A model generated the notes under the pieces. The model had not been told where the DNA came from, searched no databases, and saw only the letters and a program-made list of their open reading frames with translations. Shown here one piece after another: positions 1,236 to 57,598 of a DNA stretch of 64,000 bases; positions within the stretch are counted from its first letter, which is position 1, and each line of letters opens with the position of its first letter. The position numbers and the translations under genes were made by a program. Origin of the DNA: Anaerolineales bacterium (GTDB taxonomy: Bacteria; Chloroflexota; Anaerolineae; JAAEKA01); assembly GCA_034432445.1 (NCBI GenBank), contig DAOUBX010000124.1:8571-72570 (forward strand), given 5' to 3'.

Positions 1236-3161
1236 ATGAACCATCGCTCACCGTCAACTCTGCTCCAGCCCACCGTCGTCGCTTTGGCTTGCCTTCTCCT
1301 CCTGTCCGCATGCGCGCGACCTACATCGTCGACCTCACGCGCCAACACAGCGACGCCCATCCGTGAGACGCTGACTGCGCCGGCGGCATCGCCGACAGCC
1401 GTTGCCGCGCCAACGGTCACACAGCCATCCGCGGTGGCGTCCTCTTTGCCCGCCTTTCCCGGCGCCGAGGGGTTCGGGGCTTCGGCTACCGGCGGCCGGG
1501 GTGGCCGGGTGATCTACGTCACCACCCTCGACCCCGACCCCAACGGGGAGACGCCCGGTTCCCTCAACTGGGCGCTGCGGCAGACCGGCCCGCGGTACAT
1601 CCTCTTCCAGGTCAGCGGCGTGATCCCGGCTGCGGCCAACATCGTGCACGGCGACGTGACCATCGCCGGCCAGACCTCGCCCGGCGGCATCGTCGTGCGC
1701 GGGTTGATCTGCGACGGCCACTACGAGCGCAACACGTGCGACAACGTGATCGTGCGCCACATCCGCTCGCGGCCGGCCAGCCACATGGACGGCAGCATGA
1801 TGGCCCTCGACGACGCGCTGCGGCTGGACGGCATCCACACCTTCATCATAGACCATAGCTCCTTTGCCCACGCCGCCGATGAGGCGGCGCAGATCAGTTG
1901 GGCCTCGAACGGCACCATCCAGAACTCCATCTTCGCCGAGACGGTGGGCGACCACTGGGAGTACGGCGGGATGCTGATGAACTACTCTGCGCCCCATCAC
2001 CCCCAGGACTTCCTCTCCATCCATCACAACCTGTGGTATCGGCTGGGCGGCCGGTTGCCGGAGATCACCTGCGAAACGTCCGCCTATCCCGACGAGCCGG
2101 CCAGCGCCGCCGACTGCGCCGCCCATCCCCTGCGCCTGGAGCTCTCCAACAACCTGCTGTGGGACCCCGGCATCAACATCTGGTACAACTTGCACGTGGA
2201 CGGCGACCCCGACCTGGGCAACTACGCGCTGCACCTCAACTGGGTAAACAACTACATGGCCGCCAACCCGGCGACTTATACCTACGGCATGATCCTGCAC
2301 GCCGTGCTGGACGCGCCGGCCAACCAACTCTACTTTTCCGGCAACCGGATGAACCTCTACCCCTCCTACGCCGATTACGACCTGGCCTACTGCTGCAACG
2401 ACTTCACCGCGCCCGGCGCCAACCCCAACACCGACCTGGGGGTGGCCGTCCGCCGCACGGCCCGGCACGACTTTCCCCCCATCGCCTACACGCCCACGGA
2501 GCAGCTTGTGGCGTACGCGGCGAGCAACGTGGGCGCCTTCCCGCGCGACCCCATGGACCGGCGCTATGTCGCTTCGCTGCTGGCCGAGCAGCTCGACTTC
2601 GGCCTGCCCTACCGCGAGCCGGTGGCCAACGACGCGTTCGACCTGGACTTCGACCCTAACAACCCGCCCGCGTCGCCCCAGGACAGCGACGCGGACGGCA
2701 TGCCCGACGCTTGGGAGACCCAGCACGGGCTGAACCCGAACGCGCCGGACCACAACGGCACGGAGCTGTCGGTGCCGTTCACCGGCGTGCCGGGCTACAC
2801 CAACCTGGAGTGCTACCTGAACTGGCTGTCGGACCGGTTGGCGGCGGGCGCAGCCGCGTCCTCCATCTACCTGCCCCTGATCACTGCGGCCGGCGCCGAG
2901 TTGCACTGGACTACGGACCTCGCCAACTGCTGTTACGCCGTGCACCGCAGCGACGCGCCCCGCTTCGTGCCCTCCGATGCCACGGTGATCGCCGCCGATC
3001 TGCCGGCGGCCACCGATGCCTACCTGGACGCTGCGGCCCACATCGGCGACCCAACGGTGGAGGACTTCTACCTGGTCCGCTCATGCGGCTGCGACGGCTT
3101 TTCGACAGCCGACTCGGAGCGCGTGGGGTATATGGACTTCGCCCTACGGCGAGAAGAGTGA
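1236..3161 (+). CDS. secreted lipoprotein, pectate-lyase-like (PL1-type parallel beta-helix)
   Basis: A lipobox signal (LLLSAC) is followed by FPGAEGFGASATGGRGGRVIYVTT...GSLNWAL...IDHSSF, the canonical pectate-lyase N-terminal motifs. A DSDADGMPDAWETQHGLNPNAPD calcium-binding-like segment lies near the C-terminus. Confidence 0.7.
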   Translation: MNHRSPSTLLQPTVVALACLLLLSACARPTSSTSRANTATPIRETLTAPAASPTAVAAPTVTQPSAVASSLPAFPGAEGFGASATGGRGGRVIYVTTLDPDPNGETPGSLNWALRQTGPRYILFQVSGVIPAAANIVHGDVTIAGQTSPGGIVVRGLICDGHYERNTCDNVIVRHIRSRPASHMDGSMMALDDALRLDGIHTFIIDHSSFAHAADEAAQISWASNGTIQNSIFAETVGDHWEYGGMLMNYSAPHHPQDFLSIHHNLWYRLGGRLPEITCETSAYPDEPASAADCAAHPLRLELSNNLLWDPGINIWYNLHVDGDPDLGNYALHLNWVNNYMAANPATYTYGMILHAVLDAPANQLYFSGNRMNLYPSYADYDLAYCCNDFTAPGANPNTDLGVAVRRTARHDFPPIAYTPTEQLVAYAASNVGAFPRDPMDRRYVASLLAEQLDFGLPYREPVANDAFDLDFDPNNPPASPQDSDADGMPDAWETQHGLNPNAPDHNGTELSVPFTGVPGYTNLECYLNWLSDRLAAGAAASSIYLPLITAAGAELHWTTDLANCCYAVHRSDAPRFVPSDATVIAADLPAATDAYLDAAAHIGDPTVEDFYLVRSCGCDGFSTADSERVGYMDFALRREE

Positions 3162-3389
3162 ACTCGCCCGGTCTGCCAGCGCCACGGGCCAAACTGCAAG
3201 TCCCTCTGGGATGGTTCCCGCTGCCCGGCGCCCAAATCGCCAGCCTGCCGGCGTGATTTACAGACCACGCGCGGCTGTCACGAAAATTGACGGAGATGCT
3301 TCCGCTTCCGTTTTGGCTTTGCGTCCCTTCAGGAGGTATCCCATGCCCAAGTCGACGTCCTTCTCTCTCTCTGTCGAACTGCCATCAGC

Positions 3390-4640
3390 GTGGCTGTTCT
3401 CGTCATCTTGTCGCTTCTGGCCGGCTGGCTCGGCGTTGAACCGCCAAGTCAGGCGCAAGAGGCGCCGACCACCGACCCCGCAGCGGCCGCCGTGCAGCCC
3501 AGCGCGGCCAGCGAAAACTGGATCCGCGTGGGCTACATCGTCTACGCCTACGGCGGTTCCTGGGAGCAGTTCACCCAGCTTTTTGACGGCACCTACACGC
3601 ACATCATCTCTGCCTTCTACATCCCCGACACAGCGAGCAACCTAAGCCCTGACGCCGCTACTGAAACCTTCACGCCGGACCTGCGCGCCCAGGCCCAGTC
3701 TGCGGGATCGAAGGTGATGTTCTCCATCGGCGGCGGCACGGTGCACTACACCGTCTACGTGGCCATCGCTGACGACCCCACCGCGCGGCGGAACTTCATC
3801 AACAACACCATAGGCTTGCTGCAGAACGGGGGTTACGACGGCGTAGACTTCAACTTCGAGGGCTGGGATAGCACCATGGACGAGACGCACCGGGACAAGG
3901 TGCTTGGGCTGATGTCGGACGCCACCATCGCCGTGAAGGACGCCAACCCCGCCTACGTCACGACCTCTACCATCGCTGCGCTCTACTGGATCAACCTGAG
4001 CAACGACTGCAATCTGATCAACTCGCCGCAGATGGACTTCGCTCACCACATGGGCTACTCCTTCGGCGGCGGCCCGAACGGCCCCTGGCGCGCGCCGGGC
4101 ACCATCCAATACGTGTGGCCGGGCACGGAGTACACCGAACGCTCGGTCTACGGCGCACTGACCTATCTGCAGGGCAAGGGCTGCAATATGGCCAAGATCA
4201 CCGGCGGCCTGCCCTGCTACGCCACAAACCAGCAGCCCTGGAACAATGTGCGCAACGCAGCCAACTGGCCCAGTGTCCCCTTGCACCCCGACTACCTGGA
4301 GAAAAAGCACCCCCACGCAGAGGTACTGGGTCAACGACCCCGACGCCGTATCAGCCAAAGTGGCGGCCTACCGCAACTTCGGCTTGGCCGGCGCGATGGT
4401 GTGGCAGGTGGGCCACGAAGGACCGGCGCGCGATCTGAGCGCCGCGCTGGTGGGCGGCGCGCCGCCTCCCACGCCCACGCCCGGCACGCCGACCGCCACG
4501 TCTACGGCTGTACCACCTCCGACGGTAACGCCCACGCCAACCTCTACCGCCACCCCGCCGCCCACCCCGGTGCCGACGCCCACCCCGACCTACACCGTCA
4601 CCCCAACGCGTAGCGCTACGCCGACGCACACAATGACGCC
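3390..4640 (+). CDS. GH18 chitinase-like secreted protein with Pro/Thr-rich linker, interrupted by a frameshift near 4290-4320 (possible pseudogene or sequencing indel)
   Basis: A signal peptide is followed by the GH18 catalytic motif YDGVDFNFEGWD in frame 0 (3390-4613). The GH18 C-terminal motif YWVNDPDAVSAKVAAYRNFGLAGAMVWQ and the PTPTPGTPT...linker are in frame +1 (ORF 4246-5010). The frame switch coincides with the aaaaag/ccccc homopolymer runs at about 4296-4312. Confidence 0.6.
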
Positions 4641-4684
4641 GCTTCGTAGGCTTCGACGACTGCGCGGACGAGCGAACCTGGTCG

Positions 4685-5983
4685 ATGGCGGAGATCGAGG
4701 CGTTGAAAAGCGCAGCTGCGGTCTTGGGCGCGGCCTTTGCCCGTCAGCGCGCAGAGATGGCGGAGCGTCAACAGCGCCTGCTGGCCGAAACCCTGCGCGA
4801 CACCGCCCTGGCCCTCACCAGCACCCTCAGCTTCGAGGAGCTGGTCGATCGCGTGTTGGCCAACGCGCAGCGCTTGGTGCCCAGCGACGCGGCCAGCATC
4901 TTCTTGGTGGAGGGGGATGTGGCGCGCGTGGTGCGCACACGCAGCTATGCCGAGCGCGGACTGGAAGAGATGACGCTGTCCATGGCTTTCCGCATCGCCG
5001 ACAACTATAACCTGGCCACCATGGTCGCCACCCGCCAGCCGTGCATGATCCGCGACGTGTGGGCGGTAGACGGCTGGCTTGACCTGCCCACCTCACACTG
5101 GATAGGCTCGTATTTGGGCGCGCCGATCGAGATAGACGGGGAGGTCATCGGTTTTCTGAATCTGGATTTTGCCGAGCGCGACGCGGTGCCGCCTGAGGGC
5201 CCCCGGCTGTTGCAAGCCTTCGCTGCCCAGGCCGGCGCCGCCTTGGCCAACGCACGGCTTTACCAAGCCCTGGAGGCCCAGGTTGATCGCGCCCGGCAGC
5301 TGACCCTCGACCTGATGCGCGCCCAAGAGGCCGAGCGCCAGGTAGTGGCCCGCGAGCTGCATGACGAGATGGGCCAGGCCTTGACCGCGCTGCAGCTGAA
5401 CTTGGGCGCGCTGCACCGCAGCCTGGCCGGCGCCGCGGACGCCCGCAGCCTGGAGCGCCTGGCCGAGGCGCGCTGGCTGGCCGAAGAGACGCTCGGCCGC
5501 ACGCGCGCGCTATCGCTGGACCTGCGGCCGCCTGCGCTGGACGACCTCGGCCTTGTCCCCGCGGTTCGCTGGTATTTGGATCAGTTCGGTCAACGTAGCG
5601 ATCGAGTGGTGAGCTTTCACGTCAGCGGGGAAGAGCAGCCGATACCTCCGGCTACGGCGCTGGCTCTTTATCGCATTCTGCAAGAAGCCACTACCAACAT
5701 CGGCCGTCATGCGCACGCCGGCCGCGTGGACGTGACGCTGGACTGTGTCGCCGACGCTGTGCGCCTGCAGATCAACGACGACGGGCAGGGCTTCGATCTG
5801 GCGGCCCTGGAAGCGGCCGGCAGCCTGCACCGCAGCTCCGGGCTGCTGGGTATGCGGGAGCGCGCGGCTGCCTTGGGCGGCGAGTGTGTTATCTCTTCGC
5901 AGCCCGGCCATAGCACGCGCGTACACGTGCGTATTCCGGTGGTGGAGACGACACGAATTGTTGCCCATAAGAGTAACGGCTGA
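4685..5983 (+). CDS. GAF-domain sensor histidine kinase (HisKA_3 + HATPase_c, NarL-type partner)
   Basis: It has a GAF-like N-terminal region, the H-box ARELHDEMGQALTAL, and N/G boxes (ILQEATTNIGRHA, DDGQGF, GLLGMRERA). Confidence 0.85.
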   Translation: MAEIEALKSAAAVLGAAFARQRAEMAERQQRLLAETLRDTALALTSTLSFEELVDRVLANAQRLVPSDAASIFLVEGDVARVVRTRSYAERGLEEMTLSMAFRIADNYNLATMVATRQPCMIRDVWAVDGWLDLPTSHWIGSYLGAPIEIDGEVIGFLNLDFAERDAVPPEGPRLLQAFAAQAGAALANARLYQALEAQVDRARQLTLDLMRAQEAERQVVARELHDEMGQALTALQLNLGALHRSLAGAADARSLERLAEARWLAEETLGRTRALSLDLRPPALDDLGLVPAVRWYLDQFGQRSDRVVSFHVSGEEQPIPPATALALYRILQEATTNIGRHAHAGRVDVTLDCVADAVRLQINDDGQGFDLAALEAAGSLHRSSGLLGMRERAAALGGECVISSQPGHSTRVHVRIPVVETTRIVAHKSNG

Positions 5984-6345
5984 TGAAAGTTAAGAAAATG
6001 CTCCGGCAATAGCCGCTTGCGGCGGGTCGCCCCTTATGTGAGCCTGCCCGGCGACACCTGCACTTGCAGCGCAGATGCAAGTGTGAATCGACCGGGCTAT
6101 CAAACGGCGCCCCGTCAACGGGGCTGAAAGACGCGCCATGCACGCGCGAGCCCGTTTCAACGGGCGCTGCTATGTAGCCGGGGAACTTCATTCCCCGGCG
6201 AGATAGCATGAGGGCGAGCTCCGCTCCATTGCCGGAATATTATCTTAAGCTTCATAAGCCGTTACTACGAAGGAGTGGCGCGTGCAGGTACGCATTCCGG
6301 TGGCGGAGACGACACGAATTGCTACGTACAAGAGTAACGGCTGAA
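5921..6345. repeat. Two ~60-bp near-identical direct copies of the kinase gene 3' end (5921-5983 and 6281-6345) flanking a ~300-bp palindrome-rich insert
   Basis: Both copies encode R-V-H/Q-V-R-I-P-V-V/A-E-T-T-R-I...K-S-N-G-stop and are identical at about 50 of 60 nt. The insert between them carries the hairpins CACTTGCAgcgcagaTGCAAGTG, GCCCCGTcaaCGGGGC, GCCCGTTtcaACGGGC and CCGGGGAacttcattCCCCGG. Confidence 0.7.
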
Positions 6346-11010: not shown

Positions 11011-13458
11011 ATGCCGGGGAAGCGGATAGCTAGGTGGTTAGGGATCGGCGGCATCGTGCTGCTGATCGTGCTAGCGGCAGTGCTCTTTTTCAGCCAAACT
11101 CAGCGCGGCCAGCCCGCTGCGCCGAGCCAGGCCGCGCCGCTGCCGGTGGTCACGGCGCCGGTGGAGCTGCTGGCCATGCCCGACGCCGGCAGCGCAGCAC
11201 TGCTGCAGGCCATCGACACCGCCGAGAGCAGCATCCGCCTCAAGATCTACCTGATCACCGATGAGGCCGTGGTGGAGGCATTGGGTCGCGCCGTGCAGCG
11301 CGGGGTGAACGTGCGCGTGCTGATCGAGGAGGCGCCCTACGGCGGCGGGGAGACCAACGCGCTGGCGACACAGGCGCTGCAGTCCGCCGGCGTGGACGTG
11401 CGCGGCCGGCCGGGCGTCTTCGTCTACAGTCACGAGAAGAGCCTAGTGGTGGACGACCGCCGCGCCTTCATCATGACGCACAACTTGACCCGCTCTTCCT
11501 TTGAGCGCAACCGAGAGTACGCGGTGATCGTCGACGATCCGGCCGTGGTGACGGAAGTGGCGCGGGTGTTCGACGCCGACTGGGAGCGCATCGAGCCAGA
11601 CCTGAGCGGGGCGCAGCTGGTGTGGAGCCCGGTCAACAGCCGGCCGCGCATCGCCGCCTTGATCGACAGCGCCCGAGTCAGCCTGGACGTGCAGCACACG
11701 TCGCTGCAGGACCCGGAGCTGATCGGCCGGCTGGCCGCCGCAGCCAGGCGCGGCGTCAGCGTGCGCGTGACCACGCCGGCCATCTACGACCCCGCCGAGT
11801 CGGAGTACGGCGCCATCGACGAGCTGTTTGCCGCCGGCGTGGCCATTCGCTTCCTGGACGAGCCCTACGTCCACGCCAAGGCAATGATCGCCGACGGCCG
11901 GCTGGCCATGGTTGGCTCGCAGAACTTGACCACCAACTCGCTGGAGAACAACCGCGAGCTGGGCATTATCTTCGACGACGCGGCCGCGGTGAACCAGTTG
12001 GCCGGTTACTTCCTGCGCGATTGGAACGCCGCCAAGCCGTGGGCCGGCCCGCAGCCCACGGCCACGCTGCCGGCCGGCGACGTCCTGCGCTGGGACCAGG
12101 TCGCCGGCTACGTGGGCCAGACCGTGACCGTCGAAGGCGATGTGATCGACACTTACGACAGCGGCAAGGTCACCTTTCTCAACTTCGACGAGGACCGCAC
12201 CTTCACCGTCGTGATCTTCGCCAGCGCTTACCCGGCCTTTCCTCAGCCGCCGGAGGACCTGTACTATCGCAAGCGGGTGCGGGTCACCGGCCAGATCAAG
12301 CTTTATCAGGACCGGCCGGAGATCATCGTCGAGTCGCCGGAGGCCATCGAAGTGGTGGCGGACCTGCTGGCGACGCGTGGCCAGCCACCGCCTACGCCTC
12401 CGGCCGACGGCGTGATCGACTGGCGCGAGGCCGGCCAGTACATCGGCCAACGGCTGGCCGTCGAGGGCGACGTCGTGCGCGTCTATAACAGCGGCAAGGC
12501 CGCCTTCCTCAACTTCGCGCAGGACTACCGCGGCCAGTTCTCGGTCGTGATCTTCGCCTCCGACTTCGACCGGTGGCCGCAGCCGCCCGAGCAGGTCTAC
12601 CTAGGCCAACGCGTGCGGGTGTCGGGCAAGATCAAGGAGTACCAGGGCGCGCCGGAGATCGTGGTCGAGTCGCCGGAGCAGATCGACATCCTGGGCCCGG
12701 CGGCAACGGCCACGCCGGATGCCGTGGCAGCCGAGCGGTCGGCGCCGGTCGACCTCGCCATCACCGTCCCGCCCACGGCCACCCTGCCCATCTCGTCCAC
12801 CGCAGCCATCACGCCCACCGCCAACCCCACACCCGCCGCCACGGCTACGCCGCTTCCGGTCATCCCCTGGCAGCAGGCCGCGGCCTACGAGGGCCAGGAG
12901 GCCACGGTGGAGGGCGTGGTGGTGGACAGCTACAAGTCCAACTCGGTGATCTTCCTCAACTTCAGCGAAGACCGCAGCGCCTTCAAGGCCGTGATCTTCC
13001 GCCGCGATTGGAGCAAGTGGCCGCAGTCGCCGGAGCTGCTGCTGCGGGGCGCAACGGTGCGCGTCAGCGGGCCGGTGCAGCTCTACCAGGGCGCGCCGGA
13101 GATCATCGTCGACGACCCGGCGCAGATCGAGGTCGTTGCCCCGCCGCCCACGCCCGCCGCGCCGCCGCCCTCGGCGCCCGTCCCCTGGCAAGAGGCGGCC
13201 GCCTACGCAGGTCAACGCGTCACGGTCGAGGGCGTGGTGGTGGACACCTACAAGTCGGACAAGGTGATCTTCCTCAACTTCGGCCCCCGCCGCAGCGACT
13301 TCAAGGTCGTGATCTTCGCCAGCGCCTGGGATCGTTGGCCGCAAACGCCCGATGCGCTCTACGACGGCAAGCGCCTGCACGTCACCGGCCAGGTCAAGCT
13401 CTACAACGGCGCGCCGGAGATCATCGTGGACGAGCCGGGGCAGATCGGTGAGCGGTGA
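11011..13458 (+). CDS. membrane-anchored phospholipase-D-family (2x HKD) protein with four C-terminal tandem OB-fold (BOF/tRNA_anti-like) repeats; putative extracellular nuclease
   Basis: An N-terminal TM helix is followed by two HxKx4D motifs (HEKSLVVD, HAKAMIAD...GSQN). Four ~95-aa repeats W..A.Y.GQ.VTVEG.V...Y.S.K..FLNF...F..VIF...WPQ.P..Y.G..V.V.G.I..YQGAPEI.V..P.QI are separated by PT-rich linkers. Confidence 0.75.
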   Translation: MPGKRIARWLGIGGIVLLIVLAAVLFFSQTQRGQPAAPSQAAPLPVVTAPVELLAMPDAGSAALLQAIDTAESSIRLKIYLITDEAVVEALGRAVQRGVNVRVLIEEAPYGGGETNALATQALQSAGVDVRGRPGVFVYSHEKSLVVDDRRAFIMTHNLTRSSFERNREYAVIVDDPAVVTEVARVFDADWERIEPDLSGAQLVWSPVNSRPRIAALIDSARVSLDVQHTSLQDPELIGRLAAAARRGVSVRVTTPAIYDPAESEYGAIDELFAAGVAIRFLDEPYVHAKAMIADGRLAMVGSQNLTTNSLENNRELGIIFDDAAAVNQLAGYFLRDWNAAKPWAGPQPTATLPAGDVLRWDQVAGYVGQTVTVEGDVIDTYDSGKVTFLNFDEDRTFTVVIFASAYPAFPQPPEDLYYRKRVRVTGQIKLYQDRPEIIVESPEAIEVVADLLATRGQPPPTPPADGVIDWREAGQYIGQRLAVEGDVVRVYNSGKAAFLNFAQDYRGQFSVVIFASDFDRWPQPPEQVYLGQRVRVSGKIKEYQGAPEIVVESPEQIDILGPAATATPDAVAAERSAPVDLAITVPPTATLPISSTAAITPTANPTPAATATPLPVIPWQQAAAYEGQEATVEGVVVDSYKSNSVIFLNFSEDRSAFKAVIFRRDWSKWPQSPELLLRGATVRVSGPVQLYQGAPEIIVDDPAQIEVVAPPPTPAAPPPSAPVPWQEAAAYAGQRVTVEGVVVDTYKSDKVIFLNFGPRRSDFKVVIFASAWDRWPQTPDALYDGKRLHVTGQVKLYNGAPEIIVDEPGQIGER

Positions 13459-13470
13459 ACAGTGAACGGT

Positions 13471-13512
13471 GAACGGGGGGGGAATATGCGGAGACTATTT
13501 GCCCCCCCGTTC
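13471..13512 (+). terminator. G8/C7 hairpin immediately downstream of the PLD-family gene stop
   Basis: GAACGGGGGGGG-19 nt-CCCCCCCGTTC forms an 11-bp stem. There is no U-tract. Confidence 0.4.
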
Positions 13513-13560
13513 CGCGCCTTCAAAGGCTTTCCCATCGGCCAGGACGAGGCGATCAATGGC
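13505..13560 (+). repeat. fragment copy (about 87% identity over about 45 nt) of the ~180-bp element that is complete at 14083-14262
   Basis: ttccgcgccttcaaaggctttcccatcggccaggacgaggcgatc here versus ttccgcgccatcgaaggcttccccatcagcgaggacgaggccatc at 14207-14251. Confidence 0.55.
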
Positions 13561-13658
13561 CCACCGGTGCGTCAATAGCCGGCGTGGCTGCGCAGACGTG
13601 CGGCGACCGGCAAGCTTGGCTTCAAATCGAGGCGGTGTCTTAATCGCCTTGACGACCA

Positions 13659-14009
13659 ATGGACATCAGCCACAAAAAAGGTACTGCGATGTTGTCACCC
13701 GAAGATCGTAGCGTAGCGAGAGCCTTCAAACGTCGCCTGCAACGAATCAGCCCCGTGTTGGACATGCGGGTCTATGGCTCACGCGCGCGCGGCGATGCCG
13801 CCCCAGACTCGGACCTGGACATTTATATCGAGATGGAGAGCGTCACACCTCAACTGCGCCGCCAAATCAGCGAGTTGGCCTGGGAGGTTGGCTTGGAGCT
13901 GGATCGGGTGATCTCGACCTTGGTGGTGACGCGTGAGCAGTTGGAGCATGGCCCGATGGGCGTCAATCCGATCATCCTCAACGTCCAGGCGGAGGGAGTG
14001 TCGCTGTGA
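13659..14009 (+). CDS. minimal nucleotidyltransferase (MNT/MntA-like, NTP_transf_2)
   Basis: The 116-aa protein has the GSRARGDAAPDSDLDI motif (GS-x9-DxD). Confidence 0.8.
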   Translation: MDISHKKGTAMLSPEDRSVARAFKRRLQRISPVLDMRVYGSRARGDAAPDSDLDIYIEMESVTPQLRRQISELAWEVGLELDRVISTLVVTREQLEHGPMGVNPIILNVQAEGVSL

Positions 14010-14350
14010 ACGAAGATCAGCTGCGCGACCTGCTGCGTTACCGTATGCGCCAGGCTGACGATAGCCTCCGCTCTCAATCGCACGCCATGCCCCAACAACT
14101 CCCCCTCCTCGCCGAAGAACGCGCTACCTACATCACTCAACGCGACGACACTGAGCGCACAGACGCCGTCGAGCGCCTGCGCGCCAAGCTGTTCGCCCCC
14201 ACCTTCCGCGCCATCGAAGGCTTCCCCATCAGCGAGGACGAGGCCATCCTGGCGCTGTCCGACCCACCGCACTACACCGCCTGTCCCACTCCCCTTCTGC
14301 CGCAGATCGTCGATCGCCGGAGGAGGGAACGAGCTTGGGCGTTGGTCTGA
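14006..14350 (+). CDS. small ORF overlapping the MNT stop (GTGA); possible MNT partner, but no clear HEPN Rx4-6H motif; spans the repeated ~180-bp element
   Basis: There is a 4-nt overlap with the upstream gene. The protein is low-complexity at both ends. Residues 29-87 are encoded by the element repeated at 13505 and 15400. Confidence 0.35.
   Translation: MNEDQLRDLLRYRMRQADDSLRSQSHAMPQQLPLLAEERATYITQRDDTERTDAVERLRAKLFAPTFRAIEGFPISEDEAILALSDPPHYTACPTPLLPQIVDRRRRERAWALV
14083..14262 (+). repeat. ~180-bp element (complete copy) recurring downstream of each TA cassette
   Basis: It begins cgccATGccccaacaactcccc and ends gcgctgtccgac. Partial copies are found at 13505-13560 and 15400-15535. Confidence 0.55.
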
Positions 14351-14363
14351 TCGGTGCTATAAT
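14335..14363 (+). promoter_or_regulatory. sigma70-like promoter for the AbiE-like pair
   Basis: TTGGGC-17 nt-TATAAT lies 50 nt upstream of ATG 14414. Confidence 0.4.
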
Positions 14364-14413
14364 CCGTCTGCCGGCAGCCGCGCCGGTATCCCAGAAGCAA
14401 ACGCCGATCAGCC

Positions 14414-14716
14414 ATGACTAGCGCCAGCATCCCCGGCGGCCTGTGGCCGCACTTCCAGGAATACGATCCCGCTCACTTGGACCGCGACCAGGACGCCGAC
14501 CTGATCATCCAGCGCACCCTGGAGTATGGCACGTGGGAGGAGGTCCGCTGGCTGTTGGCGACCTACGGCGTAGAGCGCACGCGCCAGTTCCTGCGCCTGC
14601 ACGGTGAGCGGCTGCTGTCGGCTGCGGCTTTCACCTACTGGCGCAAGCTGCTGGGTGTGCGGCGTTGGCGCCGTTCGCCGTTTGCGCAGGAGGCCCGGCA
14701 GGTATGGCCCTATTGA
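14414..14716 (+). CDS. small protein upstream of and overlapping the AbiEii-family gene; putative cognate antitoxin/partner
   Basis: The 100-aa protein has the W..FQEYD...LDRDQDADLIIQRTLEYGTWEEVRWL motif. Its stop overlaps the start of the next gene by 13 nt. Confidence 0.5.
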   Translation: MTSASIPGGLWPHFQEYDPAHLDRDQDADLIIQRTLEYGTWEEVRWLLATYGVERTRQFLRLHGERLLSAAAFTYWRKLLGVRRWRRSPFAQEARQVWPY

Positions 14717-15378
14717 CGCCCCACTGGGAGGCGCTGACACCCGACACGCGCGCAGCGTTCCACCTGGCCGCCGGACTGCCTTTCATCCGGCGCTACTACC
14801 TGGCCGGTGGCACGGGGCTGGCGTTGCACCTCGGCCATCGCTTTTCGGTCGATCTCAACTTCTTCTCCCCTGCCGCCGATGCCGTCGGGCCGGACGAACG
14901 TGCAGCAATGCAAGCGGCTTTTGCCAATCCGTCTTTGGTCATCACCCACGACAAGGACATGACCTTCGTCGCCACCTGGCAGGGCGTGGGGATTAGCTTC
15001 TTCCGGCTTGCGCTCTATCCGTTGGTGCAGGAGCCGCTCTTGCTGGAGGGCGTGCCGGTTGCCACCGTCGAGGAGATCGGCGCAATGAAGTTGGCGGCCA
15101 TCATGGCGCGGGGAACGCGTAAGGACTATGTCGATCTGTACTTCATCTTGCAGCGCACGCCGCTAGAGCGCCTGTTCGAGGTGGCGACTGTCAAGTATGC
15201 TCCGGTGCGCGCCTTTGCCGTCAGCGCCGTGCGCGCCATGACCTACTTCGTCGACGCTGAGGCCACCCCGATGCCCCAGATGATCGCACGCGCGTCGTGG
15301 ACAACCATCAAACGCTTCCTGGAACGCCAAGCCTTGGAGGCCGGCCGCCAGCACTTGGAAGACTTGTGGCCACAATAG
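14704..15378 (+). CDS. AbiEii/AbiGii-family nucleotidyltransferase (type IV TA toxin family, DUF1814)
   Basis: YLAGGTGLALHLGHRFSVDLNFF and KLAAIMARGTRKDYVDLYFIL match the family signature. Start chosen at ATG 14704 (MALLTPHWEAL); the ORF-track start at 14665 is less likely. Confidence 0.75.
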   Translation: MALLTPHWEALTPDTRAAFHLAAGLPFIRRYYLAGGTGLALHLGHRFSVDLNFFSPAADAVGPDERAAMQAAFANPSLVITHDKDMTFVATWQGVGISFFRLALYPLVQEPLLLEGVPVATVEEIGAMKLAAIMARGTRKDYVDLYFILQRTPLERLFEVATVKYAPVRAFAVSAVRAMTYFVDAEATPMPQMIARASWTTIKRFLERQALEAGRQHLEDLWPQ

Positions 15379-15399
15379 GCTCGTTGCCGGCCGCGCGTG

Positions 15400-15535
15400 C
15401 TTCCGCCATGCCTCACCAACTCCCCTCCTCGCCGAAGAACGCGCCACCTACACCACCCCACGCGACGAGACCGACCGCGCGGCCGCCATCGAACGCCTGC
15501 GCGCCAGGCTGGCCGACCCCACCTTCTGCATCATG
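15400..15535 (+). repeat. decayed third copy of the ~180-bp element (1-nt and 25-nt deletions relative to 14083-14262)
   Basis: atgcctcaccaactcccctcctcgccgaagaacgcgccacctac...gaggccatcctggcgctgtccgcc aligns with copy 2 but is out of frame. Confidence 0.6.
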
Positions 15536-15654
15536 AGGCCATCCTGGCGCTGTCCGCCCCGCTGTACGGATGGGCGCTGCCGGAGCGACTGCCAGGCTGG
15601 CCGGCAGGCTAACAGCGCTAGTCCTCAGCCTTTGACCGATCAGCCCACAGCAAT

Positions 15655-17004
<1,350 letters not shown>

Positions 17005-17214: not shown

Positions 17215-17628
17215 ATGGCCGTACAACAAGTGACGATTCGTCTGCCCGAAACCCTGTATCATCAGGTCAAAGCACGCGCCCGACGCACGCAGCGCACGAT
17301 CGAAGATGAAGTGGCGGCTGTGGTTGCAGCAGCGTTACCGGAGCTAGGCGACCTTCCGCATCCGAGCTCCGACGAGATGGAGCAGATGGCTTTAATGACC
17401 GATCACGAGTTGTGGCAGGCGGCCCGAGCCACGATGACAGTGACCGAGAGTCGGCGTATGCAAGCGTTCTTGCTCAAGCGTCAAGGAGAAGGACTATCTC
17501 TAGATCAGGAGGCTGAAGCAGAGCAACTTGTGCGGCGCCAGGAGCGACTGGTGCTGATCCGCGCCCGGGCGGCGGCATTGCTGAAGCAGCGCGGGCATGA
17601 TGTGGCAGACCTGATGAAGCTCCAATGA
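17215..17628 (+). CDS. ribbon-helix-helix (CopG-like) protein with helical C-terminal domain paralogous to the 17830 protein
   Basis: The N-terminus VTIRLPETLYHQVKARARRTQRTIEDEV is RHH-like. The C-terminus AFLLKRQGEGLSLDQEAEAEQL...LIRARAAALL aligns with SWLLEANRERQLSPQEEEELDHY...LSLLKAKA of the next gene. Confidence 0.5.
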   Translation: MAVQQVTIRLPETLYHQVKARARRTQRTIEDEVAAVVAAALPELGDLPHPSSDEMEQMALMTDHELWQAARATMTVTESRRMQAFLLKRQGEGLSLDQEAEAEQLVRRQERLVLIRARAAALLKQRGHDVADLMKLQ

Positions 17629-17733
17629 GTCGTGCTGGTCAACGCAAGGCGCTTGTAGATCGAGGCAGGATGGTATCCCGCCGGGGAGGTCGGAGGCGTG
17701 ATCAAGTTCATACCCAAAGCAGGGTGGAGACAG

Positions 17734-17766
17734 TTGACTTGACCAGACAAAGATGAGTGCTATAAT
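17734..17766 (+). promoter_or_regulatory. near-consensus sigma70 promoter (TTGACC-16 nt-TATAAT) in an AT-rich patch
   Basis: ttgacTTGACCagacaaagatgagtgcTATAATgacg lies 60 nt upstream of the 17830 start. Confidence 0.5.
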
Positions 17767-17829
17767 GACGTTAAGCCATACTGGGTTTTACGGACGGCAG
17801 CTGACCTGCGGATAGAACCGGAGCAACAC

Positions 17830-18081
17830 GTGACAACTACAGCATACTCCTTGCCTTTTTATGAGCAAGTGCTGGAATTCCTGGCGTCTGGGCCATCTTC
17901 CCAGGAAATCATGGCCTACAAGCCGCCAAAGGCGGCGCAAGCGCGCTTTAGCTGGTTGCTAGAGGCGAATCGAGAGCGCCAGTTGAGCCCTCAGGAGGAG
18001 GAGGAGCTCGATCACTACATTGCTATGGATCGCATGCTCTCTCTCCTCAAGGCCAAGGCTTCCACACGACTGGAGCAGTAA
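17830..18081 (+). CDS. small helical protein, paralogue of the 17215 C-terminal domain; candidate antitoxin/immunity partner of the HNH nuclease
   Basis: The 83-aa protein is 9 nt upstream of the HNH gene. Confidence 0.45.
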   Translation: MTTTAYSLPFYEQVLEFLASGPSSQEIMAYKPPKAAQARFSWLLEANRERQLSPQEEEELDHYIAMDRMLSLLKAKASTRLEQ

Positions 18082-18089
18082 CCAAACCC

Positions 18090-18521
18090 ATGGCTCAGGT
18101 TTCCGCTCAGCTCCGCAACTTTGTTGCGGCCCGCGCCATGGAAAGCTGCGAATACTGCCTGATACATGCCGCCTACACAGCTTTTGCGCATGAGGTTGAT
18201 CACGTCATTGCACGTAAGCATGGTGGGGCCACTGAGCCAGATAACCTTGCCTTTGCCTGCGCCCAGTGTAATCGCTTCAAAGGGAGCGACATTGCAGCAC
18301 CGGACCCAGTGAGCGGAGACATTGTCACTCTTTACAACCCAAGAACGATGAATTGGGGGGACCACTTTCGCTTGGATGAGCCGCGCATCATTCCTCTTAC
18401 TGCCTCAGGCCGAGCGACGGAACGCTTGCTCCAACTCAACCAGATCGATCGCCTGTTGCTGCGCAAGGAGTTGCTGGTCAAAGGGCGCTATCCGTTCTTT
18501 GCCGCCGGACACGCACACTAG
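18090..18521 (+). CDS. HNH endonuclease
   Basis: CEYC...HEVDHVIARKHGG...NLAFACAQCNRFKG is the HNH motif with its Cys ligands. Confidence 0.8.
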   Translation: MAQVSAQLRNFVAARAMESCEYCLIHAAYTAFAHEVDHVIARKHGGATEPDNLAFACAQCNRFKGSDIAAPDPVSGDIVTLYNPRTMNWGDHFRLDEPRIIPLTASGRATERLLQLNQIDRLLLRKELLVKGRYPFFAAGHAH

Positions 18522-18745
18522 GCATGCGATGACACCGTGGCTCGCCGGATCAGGCAACACATCCTCTGGCTCCGGCGACCGAGCGGCGCAATTGCAGGGC
18601 AAAGCGATTGTGTGCTACAATCAATGTCGGCAGGCGGTGCTCGAGAACACGGACGATACAGGCGCATACCATCGCCGTGGTTGAACTCTCCCCCTGCGCA
18701 CTAGCACAACTTCTGCCGACATCGTCAGGCTTCTGATGCTCTGCG

Positions 18746-19123
18746 TTGCGCGCAATAGGAGAGCTTATGGCTGTCTTGATGCAAGAATTACCAAGGCTGG
18801 GCAAGCTCGAAGTTGACGTCAAAGTGACTGCCGACGTCAACGTCACGGCCTTTTCAGCTCGCCAAAAGGTCGATAGCTTTGTGCTCAGCGAAATTAGCTA
18901 CATGATGCACGCTGGCGATCCAACGCTGGTTTTGGCCGACCACATCCTGTGGCGGGTGCCAGTCGTGTTGTCGCAAACGTCGCGCGGCGATGTCGGTGAA
19001 GTGGGGCACATCGATGTAGACATCGAAACGGGCCAATTGCTGGTTACACCTCAGATCGTTGCGGAGATCGAGACTCGTGCCGCAGCCATTGTTGAACGTT
19101 CCTCATCGCCAACAACAATCTGA
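18746..19123 (+). CDS. hypothetical protein (start uncertain; alternative Met at MAVLMQEL)
   Basis: The ORF overlaps the downstream peptidase gene; no recognisable motif. Confidence 0.35.
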   Translation: MRAIGELMAVLMQELPRLGKLEVDVKVTADVNVTAFSARQKVDSFVLSEISYMMHAGDPTLVLADHILWRVPVVLSQTSRGDVGEVGHIDVDIETGQLLVTPQIVAEIETRAAAIVERSSSPTTI

Positions 19124-19535
19124 CGGCGATTGCTTGGCCGCCTACGCAGCCATGGTGCTCAGCTACTGGGGACGCGAGATTTCTTACAGCTCGCTCTTGC
19201 GGCTGTTGCAGGTGCAACCTTATGGCGCACCCGCAGGCAACATCCGATTGCTGTCTAGTCTCGGTCTACGTGTCACCTATAGTACAACCAACCTGGCAGG
19301 CCTGCAATCGCTCCTCGATCAGGACAGTCCCGTAATCGTTTCCGTACGCACTGGGGAGTTGCCATACTGGGCCTACACGACCGATCATGCTGTCGTTGTA
19401 GTTGGATACGATGAAGGACACGTATACGTCAACGACCCTGACAGGTCCGAGTCTCCGATTATGGTATCAAGGGGTGACTTCGAGCTGGCGTGGCTAGAGC
19501 GCGACTACGCCTTTGCGTTGATCAAGCCGACCTGA
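19059..19535 (+). CDS. papain-like cysteine peptidase, C39-like (Peptidase_C39_2/BtrH-like)
   Basis: [20 protein letters not shown] carries the Gln/Cys active-site motif; [19 protein letters not shown] supplies the His. Confidence 0.6.
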
Positions 19536-20822: not shown

Positions 20823-20984
20823 CTAACAGATCTTTCTGGCGAGCTTGTCGGGTATCTTGCTGTGGCGCGGCACCGCTTCGATTTGGCCGGTCAGGGGATT
20901 GACCCACAGCGAGTGCGACCGTCCCTCCCGCTTCAGGTAACACCCATGCCTGCGCAAGTGGCGCAACAGCTCGTGGAGTTTCAT
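20823..20984 (-). CDS. hicA: HicA-family mRNA interferase toxin (53 aa; not in ORF track)
   Basis: The reverse translation reads MKLHELLRHLRRHGCYLKREGRSHSLWVNPLTGQIEAVPRHSKIPDKLARKIC. Its start overlaps the hicB stop (ATGA). Confidence 0.75.
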   Translation of the reverse strand: MKLHELLRHLRRHGCYLKREGRSHSLWVNPLTGQIEAVPRHSKIPDKLARKIC

Positions 20985-21196
20985 CCGACGGTGACCGTAG
21001 CCCGGATGGCTTCGTTCGGGACGCCGCGCAGGCCGTCTTCCCGGCGGTCGGACAAGATCAGGTCAACTGCGTCAGCCAGGCTCTGCAGACACTCTTCGTA
21101 GGTGCGCCCAAGGCCGTTGGCGCCGGAGATCTCCAGACAATAGGCGACGTACCACGGTCCATCCCGTTCGACAATGGCAGTGAACTCATTTTTCAT
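20981..21196 (-). CDS. hicB: HicB-family antitoxin (UPF0150)
   Basis: MKNEFTAIVERDGPWYVAYCLEISGANGLGRTYEECLQSLADAV matches the HicB N-terminal fold. Confidence 0.75.
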   Translation of the reverse strand: MKNEFTAIVERDGPWYVAYCLEISGANGLGRTYEECLQSLADAVDLILSDRREDGLRGVPNEAIRATVTVG

Positions 21197-26995: not shown

Positions 26996-29900
26996 ATGAC
27001 ACCATCGCCTGTTGACGCACGCCATTCCAGCCGCTGGCTGGTCACGTTGCTGCTGCTGTTCATCCTGCTGGCCGGCTTTGCCCTGCGCGTGTTCCACGTG
27101 GACTACGCCGACGGCCAGTTGCCCCATCCCGACGAACGGTCGACCGTCGCCTTCTACGCGCCGACCATCCGCTGGCCGGCCGAGGGCATCAGCCCGCTGG
27201 ACAAGCGCCAATCGCCGTTGAACCCGTTGTGGAGCGTGGAACGACAGGAGCGGCGCAGCTACACCTACGGTCACTTTCCGCTCTATCTGCTCGTCCTCAC
27301 CGCCAACGCGGCGCACGAGCTGGCGCCGGTCGCCGAACGGCTGGGCGCCTCGCCGGAGCTGGTGCAAAGGCTGCGCACGGCCAACGGGGTGCCGGGCTTC
27401 GCCGTGGTCGGCCGGGTGATCATGGCCGTGGCCGACACGGCCACCGTGCTGCTGATCTTCTTGCTGGCCGACCGCATCTACGGCCGACGGCGTGGGCGCT
27501 GGTGGCCCGGCCTGCTGGCCGCTGCCTTCTCGGCCTTCACCGTGCTGCAAATCCAGCTCAGCCACTTTTTCGCCGTCGACCCGATCAGCACGACGTTTAC
27601 GGTGTTGGCGCTGTACGGCGCGCTGCGCATGGTGGAGGCGGGGCGGGGGAGCGGAAAGGAAGGAAAAGAAGGAAAGAAGGGAAACGGAGGGAAAGAGGGA
27701 AAGGAGGGCACTGGCGGGCGCGGCGGGGCTGGCGCGGCTTGGGCGGTGGTGTGCGGGATTGGCGCGGGGTTGGCGATTGCCTCCAAGTTCAGCGCGCTGC
27801 CGATCTTGGCGGCGCCGGTGGTGGCCGGCTTTCTGATCTGGTGGCGCGCACGCCGGGCCGAGCCGGAGGTCGACGAGGAGCGCGCCGGCCTGGGCGCAGC
27901 GCTGCTGTGGCCGCTGCTGGCGCTGGGCGTGGCCGTGCTCACGTTTGTCGTCACCTCGCCCTTTGCCATCCTCGATTGGGCGAATTTCCGCCAGGCTGTG
28001 TTGGTGGAACAGGGCGCGATGGTGCAGGGCAAGGCCGACTTCCCCTTTACGCGGCAGTATCGCGGCACGCTGCCCTACCTATATTTCATCGAGCAGCAAA
28101 TCCGCTGGGGCATCGGCTGGCCGCTGGGCATCCTGGCCTTTGCGGGCCTGGCCTGGGCACTGCTCAAGCTCCTCATCGGTCGCGGCGAGGACGGCGAGAT
28201 CGTCATCCTGAGCTGGATCGTGCCCTACTTCGGCCTGACCGGCCTCTTCCTGGCCAAGTTCATGCGCTACATGGTCCCGGTGACGCCGCTGCTGATGGTT
28301 TTTGCTGCCGGCCTGGTGGCGGCGATTTGGTATGGCGAGGTGTTGGGAAGGCGGGAGCGGAGGCAAAGGAAGGAAACGCGGGAAAGTAGGGAAACGAAGG
28401 AAACCAGGGAAATGAGGGAAAGCGGGGAAAGGGAAGGAATGAAGGGGGCGGAAGAGGGAGAGCTGGCGCTGCTCACGGTGGACGACAGCGCGCCGTCGTC
28501 GGCGAGTGTGCCGGAGCCAGAAGCGCTGTCCCCGGCCGGCGAGCCGGAACCCACCTCACCCCCTGCCGACTACCAACCACCGCTCACCGCTGACCGTTCA
28601 CCGGCCACCGTTCACCGTTCACCGGCCACCGTTCACCGTTCACCGGTCACCGGTCACCGATCACCGGTCACCGTTCACCGTTCACCGGCCACCCTCCGCC
28701 GCGCCCTCGCCTTCGCCATCGCCGCCATCGCCCTGCTCGGCGCGCTCTTCTGGTCCCTGGCCTACGTCAACGGCGTCTACAACAACACGCATCCCTGGAT
28801 CAAGGCCAGCCGCTGGATCTACGCCAACGTGCCCGACGGCTCGACCATTGCCTGGGAGCAGTGGGACGACTCGCTGCCCTACGATCTGCCGGAGCCGAAC
28901 TCCAACCGCGGTCGCTATCGCTTCATCGACTGGGGCCCCTTCGAGGAGGACCGCGCCGAGAAGTTCGAGTGGCTCAAGAGCACGTTGCGCACCGCCGACT
29001 ACCTCGTGCTGTCCTCCAACCGCATCTACGGCGCCGTGGACAACCTACCGGAGCGCTATCCGCTCACCAACCGCTACTACGAGCTGCTCTTCGACGGTCA
29101 ACTGGGCTACGAGCTGGCGCTGAAGGAGGAGAACCGGCCCAATCTCTTCGGCATCGTGGTCGACGACGAGCACGCCGACGAGAGCTTCACCCTCTACGAC
29201 CATCCCACGGTACACGTCTTCCGCAAGGTGCGCGACCTGAGCGACGCCGAGTGGGACGCGCTGCTGGGCGGCAGTTGGGAGGGCGCCCAAGCGTGGTACG
29301 TGGGTGAGCCGCTGCTGATCAGCCGCATCTTCGCCTTGTTCGGCGACGAACAGGGACAGCCCGCCCCGCGCGAGCCCGGCCCCGGCGAGGGACGCAGCCT
29401 GCTGCTGGATCGGCCGCTGGACGAGCTGCCGGTGGTGCAGGATTTCCGCTGGAACGGCCTCGCCAGCCGGTCTCCCCTGCTCGCAGCCCTGGGCTGGTGG
29501 CTGGCCATCAGCGTAATCGGCCTGGCGGCGTGGCCGATCAGCTTTGCCCTGTTCACCAACCTGCGCGACCGAGGGTTTCTGCTCGCGCGCAGCCTGGGCT
29601 GGCTGATCATGGGCTGGGTGGTGTGGATGGCCGCCAGCCTGCGCATCGGCCGCAACGCCTTGCCGTTCATCGTGGCCGCGCTGCTCGGCATGGCAGCCGT
29701 GTCCATCCTCCTCTGGCGACGCAACCGCGACGAGATGGGCGCCTTCGTGCGGGTGCACAAGCGCATTTTGCTGTTCGGCGAGGCGCTGTTCGCCCTCGCC
29801 TACGCTTTCTTCGTTCTGATCCGCCTCTTCAACCCCGACATCTGGCAGCCCTGGAACGGCGGCGAGAAGTTCATGGAGTTCGCCTTCCTCAACGCCATCC

Positions 29901-57482: not shown

Positions 57483-57598
57483 GCAATGGTTAACGGTCAA
57501 TGGTTAACGGTCAATGGTTAACGGTTAACGGTCGATGGAAGCGACTCTGCTCACCGTTCACTGTCTACCGATCACCGTTTACTGCTCACAGCACCAGC
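57483..57598. repeat. intergenic tandem repeats (TGGTTAACGGTCAA x3, then GTGAACG/GTGATCG heptamers) between larC and larE
   Basis: caatggttaacggtcaatggttaacggtcaatggttaacggttaacggtcgatgg…caccgttcactgtctaccgatcaccgtttactgctcac; same heptamer family as inside the YYY genes. Confidence 0.8.

Follow-up and report, generated by a model that had tools for sequence, protein, structure and literature searches.

The repeated element and the genes between the PLD-family gene and hisD

The DNA analysed here, referred to as the window, is a 64,000-nucleotide stretch from an Anaerolineales bacterium (assembly GCA_034432445.1, contig DAOUBX010000124.1, positions 8,571 to 72,570 of the forward strand), and all positions without a locus number are those of the window. 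Between a PLD-family gene (11011-13458) and hisD (15655-17004) lies an island of small modules and repeats, in which one element occurs three times, alternating with two small modules. Homology searches show the element to be the 5' end of pglXI (brxXI), which encodes the PF01555 N6-adenine methyltransferase of bacteriophage exclusion (BREX) type 3, and we lean towards reading the island as the eroded remains of pglXI genes that were interrupted by small toxin-antitoxin (TA) cassettes. The features of the island are listed below; a prime marks an incomplete gene, and the copies of the element are designated stubs A, B and C.

13446-13476, strand not assigned: heptamer tandem repeat, CGGTGAA in 4.4 copies, over the PLD stop codon (TRF)
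13471-13512, plus strand: G8/C7 hairpin with 14-nt arms (13471-13484 and 13499-13512) and a 14-nt loop (repeat search)
13495-13570, plus strand: pglXI stub A, part 1, codons ~34-62 (LFAPPFRAFKGFPIGQDEAI...), 83% identical to copy B, with a tblastn match to PglXI residues 34-54
13575-13611, plus strand: pglXI stub A, part 2, codons ~166-178 (…GVAAQxCGD…), just after methyltransferase motif I, matching full-length pglXI
13612-13644, plus strand: predicted degenerate promoter of the MNT-HEPN cassette, identified by homology, with -35 TTGGCT (13616-13621), a 17-nt spacer and -10 CTTAAT (13639-13644)
13689-14009, plus strand: MNT nucleotidyltransferase, 106-amino-acid form, the longest open reading frame (ORF) starting at 13659 (Pfam NTP_transf_2, E 1.4e-10)
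14006-14071, plus strand: HEPN', the first 22 codons of a HEPN toxin gene with the rest deleted (19 of 22 residues as in the N-terminus of the L094 HEPN)
14006-14350, plus strand: chimeric ORF of 114 amino acids, comprising HEPN' (amino acids 1-22), a 5-codon linker, PglXI' (amino acids 28-110) and a short junction tail
14087-14332, plus strand: pglXI stub B, the most complete of the three, with codons 1-82 (tblastn to residues 1-82)
14333-14363, plus strand: predicted promoter and left end of the DUF6922-AbiEii cassette, with -35 TTGGGC (14335-14340), a 17-nt spacer and an extended -10 TGCTATAAT ending at 14363
14414-14716, plus strand: DUF6922 protein, 100 amino acids, presumed antitoxin or partner of AbiEii (Pfam DUF6922, E 2.6e-13)
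14704-15378, plus strand: AbiEii-family nucleotidyltransferase, 224 amino acids, presumed toxin (Pfam AbiEii, E 5.1e-15, above the gathering score)
15408-15582, plus strand: pglXI stub C, comprising codons 1-40 and ~50-67, in which a 1-nt deletion shifts the frame and a further 25 nt are deleted internally (tblastn to residues 6-40 and 50-67)
15583-15654, plus strand: spacer from stub C to the hisD start codon, without a blastn-short match to any of the fetched loci

In the Anaerolineae metagenome-assembled genome L009, which is alone among species-representative genomes in encoding a related PLD protein (72% amino acid identity), the distance from the PLD stop codon to the hisD ATG is approximately 160 bp, and this spacer is made up entirely of 8-nt tandem repeats. 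Because the L009 spacer is so short, positions 13481-15640 of the window, approximately 2.16 kb, are additional DNA relative to L009, which bears out the inserted or variable DNA that an earlier reading, made from the letters and ORFs of the window (the sequence-only reading), had proposed for this junction. The layout described in that reading also holds: the two modules and three element copies are recovered by repeat search, blastn and Pfam, the genes overlap as stated, by 4 nt (14006-14009) and by 13 nt (14704-14716), and compact cassettes, each running from its own predicted sigma-70-like promoter to a stop codon, are separated by the repeated element. That the element follows each module is one description of the order; it reads equally well as standing before the next module together with the promoter of that module. 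Seven other contigs that carry the exact ORF 14006-14350 have the identical arrangement and come from the same organism as the window, and members of the 90% cluster of hisD are present on other contigs. No DNA match to the island was found in plasmid and phage collections, and the one viral-contig match is a full-length 908-codon gene, on which grounds a plasmid or phage origin was rejected.

Copy B (14083-14272), as delimited by repeat search and blastn, serves as the reference copy of the element. Relative to B, copy C aligns at 15404-15529 with 84% identity (E 1e-34) and at 15535-15567 with 88-96% identity, with a 1-nt deletion near 15429 in addition to its internal 25-nt deletion, and copy A aligns at 13495-13554 with 83% identity over 60 nt (E 7e-13; blastn throughout). 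The further copies that the sequence-only reading had suggested looking for were not found across the 64-kb window by either blastn or tblastn.

A search with the translation of ORF 14006-14350, most of which is supplied by copy B, returned short proteins sharing the sequence MPQQLPLL…IEGFPIGxDEAILALSDPPYYTACPNPF…, and the two matches with a precomputed Pfam domain both carry PF01555 (DNA methylase). A metagenome scan with an alignment of such N-termini gave at least 585 matches; 80 loci were fetched, almost all of which encode proteins of ~900-1000 amino acids. The neighbours of the full-length genes match the PADLOC models BrxF, BrxC, PglZ and BrxA, the gene itself matches PglXI at E = 0, and the surrounding gene set corresponds, by these profile matches, to BREX type 3. 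ORF 14006-14350 matches the PADLOC PglXI profile at E 1.2e-17 (ORF residues 45-104, profile positions 27-86) and is 68% identical to the PglXI of L021 over residues 20-82. Because of this homology to PF01555 proteins and PglXI, together with the BREX neighbours of the full-length genes, the repeated element is identified as a stretch of ~60-90 codons from the start of pglXI, which occurs three times. The ends of the copies are corrected accordingly: the pglXI-derived sequence of B extends from an ATG at 14087 to ~14332 and that of C from 15408 to ~15582, and a second scrap follows copy A at ~13575-13611.

The second part of stub A matches the full-length pglXI of L042, L056 and L041 at ~90%, is collinear with L094 and L096, and lies at the site that forms the MNT-HEPN/pglXI boundary in other genomes. 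This ~12-codon scrap is all that the window holds of the motif-I region. The end-points of the stubs differ between copies and loci, falling at codons ~62, 67, 75, 82, 103 and 165. At the nucleotide level, stub B is 87.7% identical to a stub in L007 and 81% identical to the L008 pseudogene. Because stub B is closer to the L007 stub, from another organism, than to A or C, the three stubs appear to be old lineages rather than recent local duplicates. The differences between stub B and the L007 stub are evenly spread over the codon positions (9/11/13) with no excess at the third, the pattern expected if the protein is not under selection. The features of a complete methyltransferase, namely motif I (FxGxG), a nested target recognition domain, motif IV (DPPF/Y) and a length of ~900-1000 amino acids, are missing, the stubs ending at codons ~62-82. 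A tblastn search of the window with the brxF, brxC, pglXI, brxHII, pglZ and brxA proteins recovered the pglXI stubs alone, and no middle or 3' end of pglXI. The stubs encode nothing useful and are pseudogene fragments.

The MNT-HEPN' and DUF6922-AbiEii cassettes

The nucleotidyltransferase of the first module belongs to the MNT group, as had been proposed, with its true start probably at 13689 because nearly all of its 211 homologues are 106 amino acids long. The curated MntA_antitoxin model matches weakly, below the cut-off, and the window MNT is up to 91% identical to 106-amino-acid MNTs that are paired with HEPN elsewhere. In L094 the intact HEPN, a 134-amino-acid PF05168 protein, is encoded 3' of MNT, and over the first 22 residues it shares 86% identity with the beginning of ORF 14006-14350. 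These 22 codons are what is left in the window of a HEPN toxin, and the Rx4-6H RNase motif is absent. Because the HEPN gene is cut after codon 22 and the remnant continues in frame into stub B, the ORF is an in-frame HEPN'-PglXI' chimera and not a functional partner gene: amino acids 48-110 align to PglXI residues 20-82, and the only full-length homologue of the ORF is itself. The earlier observation that this ORF has no HEPN motif and is not a HEPN partner is consistent with this structure, and the suggestion of a partner gene with a decaying paralogue is not. The candidates of a HEPN or of a novel partner were both rejected, as the ORF is the junction of two unrelated gene fragments. Since its toxin is truncated to 22 codons, MNT is an orphan, presumably of antitoxin function. 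Upstream of MNT, positions 13612-13644 are a degraded copy of the GCGCTTGGACAC…GGTGTTATAATC sequence that precedes the intact modules in L094 and L096, and the left part of the island can be read by homology as pglXI' (in two scraps), promoter, MNT and HEPN'.

Pfam also upholds the second module as a 100-amino-acid protein with an AbiEii-family partner and assigns the former to DUF6922. The PADLOC AbiEii models give weak matches (best 1.8e-6), and an AbiEi antitoxin (winged helix-turn-helix plus C-terminal domain) has no match upstream in Pfam or PADLOC, the upstream partner being the DUF6922 protein. This protein has 209 homologues, and its pairing with AbiEii is kept in L104-L110. DUF6922-AbiEii is the only intact two-gene module of the island and is probably its sole working part, in which an AbiEii-type toxin would be restrained by its small upstream partner.

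Homology with a cassette in L103 that has no stubs begins at 14333, at the -35-like TTGGGC, and the same promoter motif is found in L110 and L090. A scan with a generic promoter consensus does not call this site, the -35 matching at 3 of 6 positions; a promoter function is suggested by the extended -10 and its conservation. Because the homology with L103 starts at 14333 and the distant copies in L104-L110 share the coding region alone, without stubs, the DUF6922-AbiEii cassette appears to be a unit that extends from a predicted promoter to a stop codon. It abuts pglXI after codon ~82-88 in the window and in L099-L102, and probably in L090 as judged by the promoter.

Three unrelated cassettes start exactly at a -35-like GCTT(G/T)G, which may reflect either trimming under selection or a mechanistic boundary. 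The idea that the shared junction of A, B and L090 derives from one ancestral truncation is weakened, as the shared positions are mostly the -35 and extended -10 of the cassette promoters, and the spacer between them is not conserved. The junction motif GGTGCTATAATC does not recur in the window: further matches need two mismatches, and their number, 3 found against 1.4 expected, does not exceed chance. Such two-mismatch matches do precede two other small inserted modules.

Related loci and the origin of the array

Units of the island recur in other Anaerolineae contigs. In L094, L095 and L096-L098, an intact MNT gene with a 134-amino-acid HEPN lies within a decayed pglXI, with 80-81% nucleotide identity to window positions 13578-14071. 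Upstream are pglXI fragments that reach about residue 173 (L021 numbering), end in …GDIVFDGFCG.G.TGVAAQLCGDKR, …QLCGDKR and run straight into GCGCTTGGACAC-N-GGTGTTATAATC followed by the MNT gene; downstream are pglXI fragments of amino acids 803-876 or 897-918, and L094 keeps a brxC fragment as well. Both types of unit are present in L099-L102, where they adjoin a brxA-brxB-brxC cluster of type 1 BREX and are followed by an aldehyde dehydrogenase gene. Their nucleotide identities to the window are 88% and 81%, and their order is as follows.

L099-L102: HEPN 3' end and pglXI 3' scrap; stub (codons ~31-87); promoter, DUF6922 and AbiEii' (32 codons); stub (codons ~37-62); decayed promoter, MNT' and HEPN'

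The locus L091, from another sample, is orthologous to L099 and has the same terminal stub-MNT'-HEPN' unit; where L099 has the DUF6922 unit, L091 has pglXI codons 63-103 and then RelB-ParE. Other genes also adjoin pglXI remnants: a HigA-like gene follows the frameshifted stub of L007, a Phd-like antitoxin gene follows a broken pglXI in L092, and L090 has a stub followed by the DUF6922-type promoter. A related Phd-like/PIN-like pair is located just upstream of pglXI in L013 (PIN was assigned by eye, Pfam giving no match). Further decay is seen in L093 (a brxC tail and a stub between unrelated genes), L046 (a truncated pglXI followed by an opposite-strand 388-amino-acid ORF, transposase-like by eye) and L083 (pglXI truncated beside other genes). 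In other assemblies, short ORFs with comparable content have been called, P0003 (94 amino acids) among them. Two full-length pglXI genes in tandem occur in L023, L053 and L066; over the first 450 nt the pairs in L066 and L023 are 80-86% identical, which matches the 83-84% between the copies in the window.

Three loci show other arrangements of repeats and cassettes. In L037, a stub with two small deletions (1081-1260) is followed by a 329-amino-acid ORF without a family match (1399-2388), which ends 2 nt before an intact 973-amino-acid pglXI (2390-5275). L096 has a 287-nt direct repeat (4550-4836 and 5863-6149), comprising the 3' end of HigA and a pglXI scrap, around a pglXI'-promoter-MNT-HEPN unit. 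Three families of direct repeats of 55-85 nt surround cassettes in L103 (409-474/1264-1329, 841-895/1370-1424 and 1416-1500/2327-2411) and represent the beginning of an antitoxin gene, the sequence 3' of it and a promoter region; one join in L103 falls within ~19 nt of partial identity (about 15/19, ATTGACGCC exact) between an AbiEii start and an antitoxin gene start. Additionally, long near-perfect inverted repeats that resemble, by eye, hairpins of miniature inverted-repeat transposable elements adjoin the decayed BREX/TA arrays of L094 (~2760-2900) and L099 (~3560-3670).

In the reading that we prefer with some reserve, as somewhat the more probable account, the starting point would have been a BREX type 3 locus with tandem pglXI paralogues, most of each of which was replaced by a cassette. 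The other BREX genes would then have been deleted, while addictive modules and the gene scraps adjoining them were retained. As direct repeats, the stubs could add, delete or permute units by homologous or unequal recombination. In other genomes the boundary between pglXI and the MNT-HEPN cassette lies immediately 3' of motif I; in the window the toxin gene of this cassette is cut short and fused in frame to stub B.

Several observations weigh against this course of events. The window contains no brxF, brxC, brxHII, pglZ or brxA and no fragment of the middle or 3' end of pglXI; a former BREX locus at this site is not established, and the array may have been a relic before it reached this site. 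The scheme needs three paralogues in tandem, and only pairs have been seen intact. Most stub end-points fall within the first ~100 of ~930 codons, where the N-terminus had served as the search bait. To their right, the cassettes meet a pglXI start and not the remainder of the gene that they would have interrupted. L037 has the order stub, 329-amino-acid gene, intact pglXI, and L096 and L103 show repeat-cassette-repeat structures with repeats other than pglXI 5' ends. The right flanks and these three loci suggest that a duplicative, Campbell-type or unequal-crossover process fits at least as well.

Such a process would make the stubs portable recombination sites that need no dedicated recombinase, each cassette taking along a copy of the 5' segment of pglXI as it moves. 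A circularised stub-plus-cassette unit would enter a pglXI 5' end or a stub by a single crossover, or unequal crossing-over would act, and the stub would be duplicated on both sides of the cassette. It would account for the stub in L037, which is 82% identical to the resident gene, and for cassettes bordered on the left by pglXI up to codon 82 or 103 and on the right by a pglXI start. The unit order is permuted between the window and L099, one unit is swapped between the orthologous L091 and L099, other repeats (287 nt in L096, 55-85 nt in L103) enclose cassettes, and the chromosomal sites are unrelated (PLD/hisD here, brxA/aldehyde dehydrogenase in L099). However, the stub copies are 12-26% diverged with no recent event visible, DUF6922-AbiEii and MNT-HEPN cassettes are mostly without stubs (L103-L110), and a stub stands beside an intact gene in L037 alone among the 80 loci with full-length genes. 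As tandem paralogues and deletions account for most of the same data, this homology-driven origin, the main rival, is tentative and seems unlikely on the whole. The broader proposition, that TA and defence cassettes of Anaerolineae spread and reshuffle without a dedicated recombinase by carrying a scrap of the interrupted gene, the pglXI 5' end, as portable homology for Campbell-type integration or unequal crossing-over, is distinctly doubtful; if true, it would yield integron-like stub-cassette-stub-cassette-stub arrays, permuted, at unrelated chromosomal sites.

The sequence-only reading had favoured a modular insertion hot spot of the integron type, with the ~180-bp element as an attC-like or attachment site for a tyrosine recombinase. 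The repeat-cassette-repeat layout and the TA content of the cassettes, as in chromosomal integrons, are its sole support. However, the element is pglXI coding sequence with variable end-points, and the repeat search found no internal inverted repeat in copy B. Single-strand folds of copy B together with its junction are no better than those of shuffled sequences (z +0.74 and -1.62, both DNA strands). Pfam detected no integrase or recombinase in the island, in its neighbours to +10 kb or among selected mid-sized ORFs of the window, and the plasmid and phage collections gave no match. An integron-like or other site-specific cassette system is therefore improbable in the extreme. The description of the element as an insertion scar came nearest, in that the repeat would be the remnant of an interrupted gene; the dedicated recombination site that went with it is not supported. 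A real small gene is likewise very improbable, whether ORF 14006-14350 or a PglXI N-terminal domain acted as an MNT partner or as a BREX decoy or regulator, with A and C as its decaying paralogues. The ORF is open, overlaps MNT by 4 nt like a TA partner and has counterparts of similar content such as P0003. However, it joins two unrelated gene fragments and has no full-length match other than itself, related stubs carry frameshifts, internal deletions and differing ends, the differences from L007 are even across codon positions, and intact MNT is paired elsewhere with the 134-amino-acid HEPN.

Other features of the window and comparison with known systems

At the left edge of the island, the GTGAACG heptamers and the G8/C7 hairpin exist as the sequence-only reading described them (TRF and repeat search), and neither is upheld as an insertion signature: the former are common tandem repeats, and the right arm of the latter is stub A sequence. 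Arrays of 7-9-nt units are numerous in the window, and L009 has 8-nt arrays in its own PLD-hisD spacer; the heptamers are one case of a genome-wide intergenic habit and not part of the island proper. The hairpin folds as RNA at -32 kcal/mol (z -1.85) with no T-tract after it, and may be a terminator-like structure for the PLD gene.

Short tandem repeats of 7-9-nt units (CGGTGAA, CACCGTT, ATCACCG, GTCACCG, GGTTAAC, GAGGGAAAG and others) are frequent in both the window genome and L009 and resemble the short tandemly repeated repetitive (STRR) sequences of cyanobacteria. The arrays in the window are at 13446-13476, 27653-28693, 30236-30354, 33037-33074, 33577-33633 and 57484-57538, and those in L009 at 12345-12505, 13865-13890 and 14625-14665. 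Between hisD and hisC of L009, an inserted gene of the 23S_rRNA_IVP/bAvd-like kind is flanked on both sides by GTGAACA arrays, which are inverted relative to each other. In the window, a 1753-codon open frame (26996-32257) with high GC content at third codon positions runs across several 7-, 9- and 27-nt tandem arrays and could be either a giant repetitive protein or a repeat artefact.

Because the window also has additional DNA of lower GC content in the hisD-hisC and hisC-hisB spacers, the insertion of variable DNA among the conserved his genes is a general feature here. The lower-GC DNA (54-60%) of the hisD-hisC spacer (17215-19535) amounts to ~2.5 kb, has no counterpart in L009 and encodes a FitA-like ribbon-helix-helix protein (137 amino acids), an 83-amino-acid ORF with an HNH nuclease, and a 118-amino-acid ORF with a C39-like peptidase. 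Two of these modules are preceded, at 17756 and 18611, by sequences that differ at two positions from the extended -10 motif of copy B, and the 118-amino-acid/C39 pair is homologous (42-46% at the amino acid level) to two genes that directly precede the pglXI stub of L037. The hisC-hisB interval measures only ~110 bp in L009; in the window it contains, on the minus strand at ~20823-21196 (coordinates from the L001 gene table), a HicA-like toxin gene next to a small ORF (presumed HicB, no Pfam hit).

The product of the PLD-family gene has a hydrophobic segment at its N-terminus, two PLDc_2 domains and, as OB-fold repeats, four tRNA_anti-codon-like units, the final ones of which form a 318-nt tandem repeat in the DNA (12863-13447). 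It matches the hidden Markov models of DISARM DrmC through the generic PLD domain. As the gene is conserved beside hisD in L009, it probably does not belong to a defence system.

TA-like HEPN/MNT effectors embedded in BREX loci have been described (PMC12839542). The modules considered here resemble them in that MNT-HEPN and other modules lie inside or beside BREX type 3 genes in related contigs. They differ in that the modules of the window would have interrupted and outlived the methyltransferase gene, no intact system is present, and one module has lost its toxin. Full-length relatives of PglXI are found in canonical brxF-brxC-pglXI-(brxHII)-pglZ-brxA loci, whereas the window holds 5' scraps only, with no methyltransferase domain and no other BREX gene. 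The two cassettes share their domain families and overlapping two-gene layout with MNT-HEPN (type VII, MntA/HepT-like) and AbiE (AbiEi/AbiEii, type IV) systems; however, HEPN is cut to 22 codons, the AbiEii partner is a 100-amino-acid DUF6922 protein and not AbiEi, and the matches to curated MntA and AbiEii models are weak.

Cassette arrays of chromosomal integrons often carry TA cassettes. Like them, the island alternates compact cassettes with a repeat, and the content varies between strains. In contrast, the repeat here is a piece of a gene, its ends vary and it lacks an attC structure, no IntI was found in the ORFs scanned, attI and Pc are lacking, and each cassette of the window has its own predicted promoter. 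Tandem genomic islands bounded by duplicated ends of target genes are also known, as at tRNA 3' ends and at the icd 3' end with e14 and phage 21. As in those islands, successive inserts lie between direct repeats that stem from one end of a disrupted gene; in the known islands, however, the crossover cores are fixed by an integrase and the target stays intact, whereas the ends in the window vary, the target is destroyed, and no integrase was found in the ORFs scanned.

Pseudogenised defence genes and persistent TA modules are familiar individually. To these the window contributes a clear case of a pglXI 5' end that survives three times between cassettes, with the units recurring, permuted, in related genomes. 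The integron-like hot spot would thereby be replaced by a phage-defence methyltransferase gene that was colonised, destroyed and outlived by TA cassettes, an example of defence-locus decay in which addictive modules preserve scraps of their former neighbours. For annotation, ORFs such as 14006-14350 are a warning that an open frame can be the in-frame junction of two pseudogenes. Finally, the permuted units of stub plus cassette may offer a tractable case for how TA cassettes that extend from promoter to stop codon move between sites.

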